Virus record (IMG/VR): IMGVR_UViG_2778261688_000008
Span: 1 to 6,945 of that record
Source: a virus
Lineage: Duplodnaviria > Heunggongvirae > Uroviricota > Caudoviricetes
DNA: 6,945 nt
Reading direction: 5' to 3' (one strand)
Under the pieces are notes generated by a model, which saw nothing but the letters and a program-made list of their open reading frames with translations, searched no databases and had not been told where the DNA came from. Every line of letters starts with the position of its first letter. Positions within the stretch are counted from its first letter, which is position 1. This document shows positions 4,180 through 5,670 of the stretch, one piece after another. Made by a program: the position numbers and the translations under genes.

Positions 4180-5670
4180 TTAATTTGACCTGTAAACATC
4201 AAAGTAATAGCTACCTCTTGTATTTGGCTCTGCACGCAAGGTGTAGTTTCTTAGATTAATCCTTTCATCAGATAAAATTGTAGTATATTTTGATGCATCA
4301 AAACCAGACTCAAACTCCTTTAATGGTATCACGTTATATACCACATTACTGTCAAGGCAAGTAGCCAGCGTGTTGAATTTAAATGGCACCTTTACGATAA
4401 TTAATGTTTTGTTGTTGTTGTGAACACTCTGGCAGTCATAATTATCTCTAAGGAATAAGTTTTCCACCTTATTTCTATCTGCATTAATTGAAGCAGAGAA
4501 AATGGACACAAATGTTAATATAGTGAATGATGCAGTGGCATTAATTTTTCCGGCAAAGCTATAGAATGACGCAAATATCAAAGCAAACATAGGAATTGAT
4601 GGGTATGCATACCTGGCCAGTTTGTAAGGTGCAAAATAAATTGATAATATAACAAATAGCGATGTGGATAAAACAATCCAAATGGAAAACAGACTATGCC
4701 TACATCCGCTGTATGTTTTGTAAATTAAATACAACAACCCCAATATGGCTATTAAATATATAAATGGCAATGAAATTGAGATATCATGGAAAACCTTAAA
4801 CGAAGAGGCTATGTTTTCCTTAAATGAAAACACCTTTCCAACTGCCTCGGTAGTTCTATAGTTTATATTGAAATATCTTGGGTAAATTATAAATGAAAAT
4901 GAAATAACTAAAATAATAAATAATAAGATCTTTTTTAACGCGTTGTGGCCGCATATGGATCTATGATTAAGCAAAATAAGCAAAGATACTGGCAAAATAT
5001 AAAATACAGAAAAATAGCCAGTTAAAAATGTAACGGAAGTTACTGCAGCATATTTAACAAGCTCCTTACGTTGTATGTCAGTAGTATCAAATACCAATAA
5101 CGTATAGTACGTAAAGATTACAAACATCATTTCTTGGAATTGATAAGGCCTAAGAAATGTGGTATTAGATATCGCAAAACACGAAGTGTATGCTATAAAT
5201 GCGCAAATTATTGAAGGTGTAATATTGCCAGTTAACTTATGCACCAGTTTTACACAAAAGTAAAATGAAATGCACATGAAAATAATGTTCATCTGCGCAA
5301 GCCATACAACAATGTTGGATATGTTCGAGTCCTTAAGTGGTGTCATCCATAGTCGCAAAAGGCTATAGTATATATTGCTATGAGGCAGGTCTCTATTGTT
5401 AACCCATAATTTACCAACATCATTAATGGCATCTAAAATACCACCATTAACAACATACATTTCCCTTCTTATAGCATCACCAGTAGCGCCAATAAAACCA
5501 TCACCAATGGTAGAGAAACCTATTGACTTATATGAGGATAATATAATTGACAATGATTCATCAACGTGCAATCCTGATTTAATAGAAATATAGTACTCTC
5601 TCATAAAGATGAGTAACGCCATGCAAACTACAAACACAATAGTGTTATTAATTCTTATGCCTCTAAACAT
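4180..5670 (-). CDS. gtrC: Type-specific O-antigen glucosyltransferase (GtrC-class), polytopic inner-membrane protein with C-terminal periplasmic domain
   Basis: 496-aa ORF directly downstream of gtrB, with its ATG at 5668-5670 overlapping the gtrB stop by 8 nt and an AGGA Shine-Dalgarno just upstream. About 9-10 hydrophobic helix-length segments (e.g. [49 protein letters not shown]) are followed by a roughly 100-aa hydrophilic C-terminal domain. The DNA is markedly AT-rich compared with gtrA/gtrB. Position and topology fit the variable third gene of gtr operons; the serotype specificity cannot be assigned from sequence alone. Confidence 0.8.

Follow-up and report, generated by a model that had tools for sequence, protein, structure and literature searches.

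Why does one gene of a prophage operon differ sharply in base composition from its neighbors on both sides, and does the difference record a recent acquisition? The question is raised by gtrC, the third gene of a gtrABC operon found in 6,945 nucleotides (nt) of tailed-phage DNA (IMG/VR record IMGVR_UViG_2778261688_000008, positions 1 to 6,945), the whole of which is called the window below. The AT-rich block formed by gtrC is probably the exchangeable specificity gene of the operon. Its composition would be an old trait of the gtrC lineage, and its recent exchange would have taken place together with the receptor-binding domain of the phage tailspike and the 3' end of gtrB.

The GC step at gtrC

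The guanine-plus-cytosine (GC) content of gtrC is 32.8% (31.4, 34.2 and 32.8% at the first, second and third codon positions). The corresponding values are 47.7% for gtrB and 45.5% for gtrA, with third-position values (GC3) of 49.0% and 49.6%, respectively. The four tail genes on the other side of gtrC have GC contents of 50.7, 46.0, 46.1 and 42.8%, with GC3 ranging from 38.0 to 47.6%. The original prediction, made by eye, that gtrC is strongly AT-rich relative to gtrAB and the tail genes is thus borne out. Its estimate that the neighbors lie in the mid-to-high 40s needs correcting only for the tailspike gene, which adjoins gtrC directly and has the lowest value among the tail genes. The AT run that was quoted as an example is found at 4891-4920.

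The window was segmented using a three-segment maximum-likelihood GC model, with 100 shuffled sequences as the null and with intervals of 2 log-likelihood units as support. The breaks were placed after 4169 (support 4096-4272) and after 5674 (support 5651-5746), matching the two ends of gtrC. The resulting segments have GC contents of 45.0, 32.7 and 47.4% from left to right. Twice the gain in log-likelihood was 83.5, compared to a maximum of 20.6 among the shuffles. The 8-nt overlap between gtrB and gtrC, at which the switch in composition had been predicted to occur, is real and lies next to the second break. The GC3 of gtrC differs from that of gtrAB (Fisher's test, p = 4e-7) and from that of the tail genes (p = 0.0015), and its composition lies outside the range of its neighbors. 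The gene is therefore a compositional island with sharp edges, unlike both of its flanks. The last 144 nt of gtrB, which have a GC content of 42%, were considered as DNA that had moved along with gtrC. The same dip is present in the gtrB genes of phages SfV and HF4s and of loci L008 and L010 (comparison loci are given here by L numbers), showing that it is a generic feature.

The amino-acid sequence accounts for about 7 of the 15 GC points that separate gtrC from gtrB, the GC contents expected from the two protein sequences being 41.5% and 48.5%, respectively. The remainder is synonymous. The residues Phe, Tyr, Met, Ile, Asn and Lys (FYMINK) constitute 40% of GtrC, compared to 28% of GtrB. A codon index was calculated using weights from 16 neighboring Escherichia coli chromosomal genes, and it measures host-typical rather than highly-expressed usage. 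The gtrC gene has the lowest value in the window (0.530), below gtrB (0.605), gtrA (0.621) and the tail genes (0.57-0.61); the host genes have values of 0.63-0.79. The earlier suggestion that rare codons may limit the expression of GtrC was overstated. The frequency of rare codons per 1000 is 94.8 in gtrC, 96.3 in the baseplate gene, 76.4 in the tailspike gene and 71.7 in gtrB. Three rare codons are found among the first six of gtrC (AGA3, ATA5 and AGA6), but they are not conserved in the Rahnella and L010 relatives. A limitation of GtrC expression by codon usage is speculative.

Identity of the GtrC protein

The 496-residue GtrC protein had no match among the Pfam, NCBIfam and PHROG models, and a tblastn search of 50,697 phage records with this protein found nothing. 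The structure of GtrC was predicted with AlphaFold2 using an alignment of the family (mean predicted local distance difference test score 87.7, predicted template modeling score 0.90). In the model, helices extend to about residue 395, as would be expected of a polytopic membrane domain, and a C-terminal alpha/beta domain follows. When the model was compared to the Protein Data Bank (PDB) using Foldseek, the best 32 matches were all glycosyltransferases of the GT-C type, with a probability of 1.0 for the best 24. They include DPY19, STT3/PglB/AglB, ArnT, AftA, ALG9 and PMT. Residues D37 and E38 are invariant in the 27 sequences of the family and are situated between model helices 9-29 and 36-45, after the first transmembrane helix. 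This pair probably represents the GT-C acidic motif of the first extracytoplasmic loop, the side of the membrane being a prediction. Weak matches to PF03901 (family GT22) were found in 8 of the 27 family members.

The gene is preceded by gtrA and gtrB, in this order, in all nine homologous loci with coordinates that were analyzed, and it is convergent with the tailspike gene in all loci examined except those of Rahnella (L008 and L009). From its position, predicted fold and motif, the product of 4180-5670 is taken to be a GtrC-type polyprenyl-phosphate-sugar transferase belonging to an unannotated family. It is further taken to be a serotype-specific glycosyltransferase, the acceptor of which is presumably the O-antigen. 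In the three-component mechanism described for such operons, GtrB loads the sugar, GtrA flips it and GtrC transfers it (PMC11194591, PMC2629481). This type of GtrC is new to the family databases and to sequenced phages, and it probably specifies an uncharacterized modification of the O-antigen in E. coli and Enterobacter.

Relatives of gtrC and the age of its junction

A protein search with GtrC returned 30 relatives, and all those that carry an organism name belong to the Enterobacterales. The identity is 99% to the Enterobacter kobei protein, 56% to that of Rahnella and about 30-34% to those of Lelliottia, Erwinia, Proteus and E. coli. No close homologue outside the Enterobacterales was found in the protein searches. 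In a neighbor-joining tree, which was built by a distance method with a midpoint root and carries no support values, the copies from Enterobacterales group as a single clade.

Distant GtrC-like genes (25-35% identity; L022-L061) occur mostly in low-GC Treponema, Helicobacter, Gastranaerophilales, Dysgonomonas and Holosporaceae. A GtrB-like family-2 glycosyltransferase (GT2) with 37-42% identity is directly adjacent in about half of these loci. It is situated upstream of the gtrC-like gene in spirochaetes and Helicobacter and downstream of it in Dysgonomonas. A tblastn search detected no GtrA at these distant loci. Among 33 homologues from other phyla, the GC content of the gene follows that of its flanks (gene GC = 0.914 x flank GC - 0.014, r = 0.91), with a mean offset of -4.9 points. 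This line predicts about 45% GC for a family member in E. coli, a host with 50.6% GC, and the distant E. coli and Lelliottia members have GC contents of 43.8-44.5%, as predicted. The window gtrC lies 12 points, or 3.5 standard deviations, under the line, a value that would fit a background of about 37-38% GC. The FYMINK content of the family also shifts with GC, from 35% to 44%.

The Enterobacter-like, Rahnella and L010 loci have all retained the overlap of gtrB and gtrC in the form ATGTTTA(A/G). A GC3 of 27-33% is common to the window, Rahnella and L010 genes, the synonymous sites of which are saturated (proportion of synonymous differences 0.75-0.80). Since both the overlap and the low GC3 are present in relatives so distant that synonymous divergence is saturated, the junction between gtrB and gtrC appears to be old and the AT-richness persistent, rather than the mark of a fresh graft awaiting drift to the host composition. 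A low-GC origin of gtrC is plausible, since the gene lies so far under the family line and the outgroup homologues are found mostly in low-GC gut bacteria. The original prediction had been of a specificity gene acquired from a lower-GC donor and grafted onto a conserved gtrAB backbone. Of this, the separate module and the plausible low-GC heritage stand; a recent date does not, and no donor was found among the relatives. Locus L010, the nearest of the diverged relatives, with flanks of 34-40% GC, was considered as a locus from a low-GC host. This was rejected upon finding that its DNA is 82% identical to that of Hafnia phage Pocitis76. The GC content of Hafnia is about 48%.

Breakpoints and the history of the module

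The history of gtrC is incongruent with that of the neighboring genes. Its nucleotide sequence is 99.1% identical to the Enterobacter-like copies, whereas the identity of their gtrB genes is 87-90% and that of their gtrA genes 65-76%. Synonymous divergence (dS) between the window and L006/L007 is 0.02 for gtrC, 0.5-0.7 for gtrB and more than 2 for gtrA. The gene thus appears to be a module evolving apart from gtrAB.

Breakpoints were read from ungapped mismatch maps. Compared to L006, the window is about 99.4% identical over 1-5983 and about 15-25% divergent over 5984-6945. Mismatches to L006 and L002 are sparse up to 5699, the position of the last of these, and become dense from 5984; those to L007 are dense from 5759, which places the switch between 5699 and 5759. 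Across these gtrB intervals, the Enterobacter-like copies go from about 99.4% to about 85% identity. With L002 and L007, the sequences can be aligned only from about 2117, within the tailspike gene, and the identity stays at about 99% as far as about 5700; there is no alignment upstream. The gtrB/gtrC overlap, where the recombination junction had been expected, therefore does not appear to be the site of the detectable recent crossovers, which map within gtrB (5699-5759 and 5699-5984) and within the tailspike gene (about 2117). This agrees with the finding that recombination in gtr operons is not confined by gene boundaries (PMC3688519).

Only in comparisons between different gtrC types does the homology stop at the gtrC start codon. 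In L062 (E. coli 2018-05-2CC, at the sbcB-dacD site), gtrAB is 85% identical up to 5668, in the gtrC ATG, and is followed by an unrelated gtrC of 488 codons with a GC content of 34.1%. The protein encoded there shows no similarity to the window GtrC. L062 is also a prophage remnant with a truncated fragment of a beta-helix tailspike. The sbcB-dacD site is a recurrent landing pad of gtr prophages. The gtrAB homology to other phages ends at 5671 in HF4s and the Enterobacter phages and at 5703-5718 in the Sf phages.

Relative to the Enterobacter-like copies, gtrA has 19-31 mismatches per 100 nt and the 5' two-thirds of gtrB has 9-20. The greater divergence of gtrA suggests a further exchange boundary near the gtrA/gtrB junction. 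A 6-kb block containing the tail genes and gtrC is about 99.4% identical between E. coli D9/D4 and the Enterobacter-like loci, whose flanks have about 55% GC. Because of this identity, and because the protein cluster is named Enterobacter kobei, the prophage segment has probably moved between genera recently.

Linkage of gtrC to the tailspike

The N-terminal anchor of the tailspike has been swapped independently of the receptor-binding part, with the breakpoint at residues ~148-153. The tailspikes of L002, L006 and L007 have 680, 825 and 941 residues, respectively. They are 99% identical from residue 148 onwards, as are the GtrC proteins of these loci (99%), and the N-termini of the L002 and L007 tailspikes are different. 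The upstream baseplate genes also differ among the three loci. In L010, the identity is 69% for the tailspike and 58% for GtrC. In L012-L015, where GtrC is 30-32% identical, the similarity of the tailspikes is restricted to the N-terminal domain (in L013 there is none). Similarity in the receptor-binding part of the tailspike thus tracks similarity in GtrC across these loci.

The segment from about 2117 to 5700 runs from the C-terminal part of the tailspike gene, over a strong hairpin at its center and gtrC, to the 3' end of gtrB. It may form a specificity cassette whose parts diverge together and which is swapped as a unit between prophage backbones. Under the same tentative proposal, GtrC would stand for a GT-C family so far undescribed, whose members have GtrB-like enzymes as partners both in Enterobacterales prophages and in hosts as distant as Treponema, Helicobacter and Dysgonomonas. 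It is a real possibility that falls somewhat short of being probable. If true, the cassette would couple the O-antigen that the phage recognizes to the modification that the phage imposes. The breakpoints are concrete, and the data suggest joint inheritance of tailspike specificity and O-antigen modification.

The hairpin is situated in the 44-nt spacer between the tailspike gene and gtrC. Its arms are GUUGUGCCAGCCU and AGGCUGGCACAAC, and its folding energy is -26.1 kcal/mol (z = -4.85). A scan for the terminator consensus did not flag the hairpin, both strands of which lack a T-run; it may act as a terminator in both directions or stabilize RNA ends.

Origin of the low GC content

The observations are probably best explained if the AT-rich block is the exchangeable specificity gene of the operon, carrying a composition that it acquired long ago. 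As judged from their families, GtrB would attach a sugar to undecaprenyl phosphate, GtrA would flip the sugar across the membrane, and GtrC, having the GT-C fold, would hand it on, in the periplasm, to a particular site of the O-antigen. The gtrA and gtrB genes would belong to a conserved, mid-GC pool that undergoes homologous recombination among enterobacterial prophages. The gtrC gene would be a lineage of its own; lacking a homologous counterpart in other gtr operons, it would keep its own composition. Its low GC content would be distributed about equally between the amino acids (F, Y, M, I, N and K) and AT-ending synonymous codons. This composition would most likely derive from a low-GC gene pool and would have failed to drift to host values during a long residence in Enterobacterales prophages. 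In the recent exchange, gtrC would travel with two partners, the tailspike receptor-binding domain and the 3' end of gtrB.

Several points weigh against this account. In E. coli and Lelliottia prophages, some members of the family have 44% GC, which indicates that gtrC can come near to the host composition, and a persistent equilibrium is thus not universal. The persistence could also result from repeated independent entries out of low-GC hosts. As the 3' end of gtrB travels with gtrC, the shared junction is not strict proof of a single ancient graft, and the tree in which the Enterobacterales clade is monophyletic is a rough one. Mutation bias with weak selection, selection related to H-NS and cycling between hosts are all candidate causes of a sustained AT bias, and the sugar, acceptor and activity of GtrC are predicted.

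It is unlikely that gtrC came newly from an organism of lower GC content, was joined to a resident gtrAB at the overlap and is still too young to have drifted. The position of the GC break at the overlap, the exact replacement of gtrC at its start codon by other gtrC types, the fit of its GC content to a 37-38% background and the predominance of low-GC bacteria among the outgroup hosts are all as this explanation would have them. However, relatives that are 56-58% identical at the amino-acid level show the same overlap and the low GC3, at saturated dS and in three enterobacterial contexts, and the recent breakpoints fall within gtrB. The single Enterobacterales clade and the failure of the searches to find a close homologue outside this order also speak against a new arrival, as does the low GC content common to the other gtrC types examined. 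An explanation that dispenses with transfer, in which the low GC content simply follows from the many Ile, Phe, Tyr, Asn and Lys residues of a very hydrophobic membrane protein, is very unlikely. Although the FYMINK excess, the lower GC content expected from the protein sequence and the negative offset of homologues in other phyla agree with it, the difference in GC3 between gtrC and gtrB (32.8% and 49%) contradicts amino-acid composition as the sole cause. In high-GC hosts, the GC content of homologues equal in fold and length rises to 44-54%, and the window gene lies well below the family line. As the FYMINK content of the family moves with GC, it is in part an effect and not a cause.

Active selection for AT would act either through silencing or tuning by H-NS of a potentially toxic membrane protein, or through slow translation of rare codons that keeps GtrC at a low level. 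The persistence of low GC over saturated divergence and its recurrence in different gtrC types could be accounted for in this way, and so could the rare codons at the 5' end and the low codon index. Nevertheless, such selection is rather improbable, because the density of rare codons equals that in the baseplate gene, the 5' rare codons are not conserved in the relatives, and family members with 44% GC exist. The old, exchangeable specificity gene described above is thus preferred. Its shared junction and persistently low GC3 are a small data point on whether low-GC O-antigen genes are not yet ameliorated or are held low.

Layout of the window and prophage setting

The four tail genes and the three gtr genes are convergent (Table 1). 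The start codon of gtrA is the final triplet of the window. The gtrB gene has 75-84% nucleotide identity to the gtrB genes of HF4s, SfI, SfII, SfIV, SfV and P22-like phages. An AGGA sequence is situated 4 nt upstream of the gtrC ATG and, together with the overlap, suggests translational coupling of gtrC to gtrB. The C-terminal half of the Gp10_C-domain protein contains the His-x-His motifs HKH, HVH, HQH and HEH, which recall the metal-binding HxH repeats of phage tail fibers.

Table 1. Features of the 6,945-nt window, with the evidence for each assignment
Feature	Positions	Strand	Evidence
Uncharacterized PHROG-family gene, also with weak baseplate-family matches	1-756	+	PHROG
Uncharacterized PHROG-family gene	765-1001	+	PHROG
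Baseplate/tail-fiber gene with Gp10_C domain	1001-1657	+	Pfam
Tailspike gene, 825 residues, Tail_spike_N domain and beta-helix	1658-4135	+	
Tailspike, N-terminal anchor part	1658-2116	+	PF18668 at residues 66-135
Tailspike, C-terminal receptor-binding part	2117-4135	+	Alignments to L002 and L007 start at ~2117
Hairpin, perfect 14 bp, in tailspike/gtrC spacer	4139-4172	.	Sequence, fold
gtrC, polytopic membrane protein of 496 residues, predicted GT-C fold	4180-5670	-	Open reading frame, AlphaFold2 model, Foldseek
Overlap of gtrB stop and gtrC start, 8 nt, ATGTTTAG	5663-5670	-	Sequence
gtrB, family-2 glycosyltransferase (bactoprenol glucosyltransferase)	5663-6586	-	PF00535, E = 1.7e-29
gtrA, small membrane protein (flippase)	6583-6945	-	PF04138, E = 3.4e-13; phage gtrA homology
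Interval with recent homologous-recombination breakpoints, within gtrB	5699-5984	.	Ungapped mismatch maps

Positions 244-6945 are 100% identical in E. coli D9 and D4, which were isolated from dogs. The copy in D9 is a degraded prophage between dacD and sbcB, with copies of ISEc52 on both sides. These copies (L001 6887-8056 and 14854-16024) are inverted and frameshifted in D9 and D4. One of them interrupts the baseplate gene at window position 244, so that window positions 1-243 are missing from both strains. The second is situated 87 bp upstream of gtrA, where a single GATCGATC cluster remains. In the Enterobacter-like locus L006, two separated GATC sites are found upstream of gtrA, recalling the Dam/OxyR phase-variation regions of Salmonella gtr operons. 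A truncated integrase adjoins the operon in D9, and an intact integrase is present in L012. With the tail and tailspike neighbors in the window, these integrases place the gtr operon in a prophage.

Comparison with known systems

The locus has the composition of a gtrABC serotype-conversion operon, in which GtrA comes first, a GT2 GtrB second and a co-oriented, variable membrane protein third. It shares with the operons of Shigella flexneri phages SfI, SfII, SfIV, SfV and SfX and of the Salmonella P22/epsilon34-like prophages the order of the genes, which abut or overlap, the conserved gtrAB, the variable polytopic third gene and the position in a prophage beside tail or tailspike genes. The GC step at gtrC and recombination that crosses gene boundaries (PMC3688519) are further common features. 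Unlike the rest of the operon, the window GtrC has no detectable sequence similarity to the GtrC types of these systems.

The GC contents of the gtrC genes of SfI, SfII, SfIV, SfV, a P22-like phage and HF4s are 31.8-38.0%, compared to 42-47% for their own gtrAB genes. Five of these six operons have annotated gtrC types, and the sixth was checked as unrelated. A low-GC gtrC is thus the rule in every other gtr operon examined. No statement of gtrC GC values was found in the open-access literature, and the generality of the pattern is based on these measurements and on the precedent of O-antigen gene clusters.

The resemblance of GtrC to the GT-C superfamily (ArnT, PglB/STT3, DPY19, ALG9, PMT and AftA) lies in the predicted fold (Foldseek probability 1.0, TM-score about 0.5), the acidic pair D37/E38 and the C-terminal alpha/beta domain. 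However, the sequence identity is 8-12%, and the presumed acceptor is the O-antigen, not a protein or lipid A.

In O-antigen clusters, the genes for specific glycosyltransferases, wzx and wzy have GC contents of 28-37% (Reeves et al. 2013, PMC3715488). The classical view is that such genes were transferred from a low-GC ancestor, but the pattern is said still to need explanation (PMC3715488). As in the window, low-GC specific genes are situated beside pathway genes of intermediate GC in hosts with 50-52% GC, and there are boundaries at which serotype-specific DNA begins. The GC step is thus textbook behavior of O-antigen specificity genes and adds little when taken alone. Whereas the O-antigen cluster is chromosomal, the locus described here is a prophage operon, and its specific gene is linked to the receptor-binding domain of a tailspike. 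Both the kind of system and its compositional pattern are well known; what is new is the sequence type.

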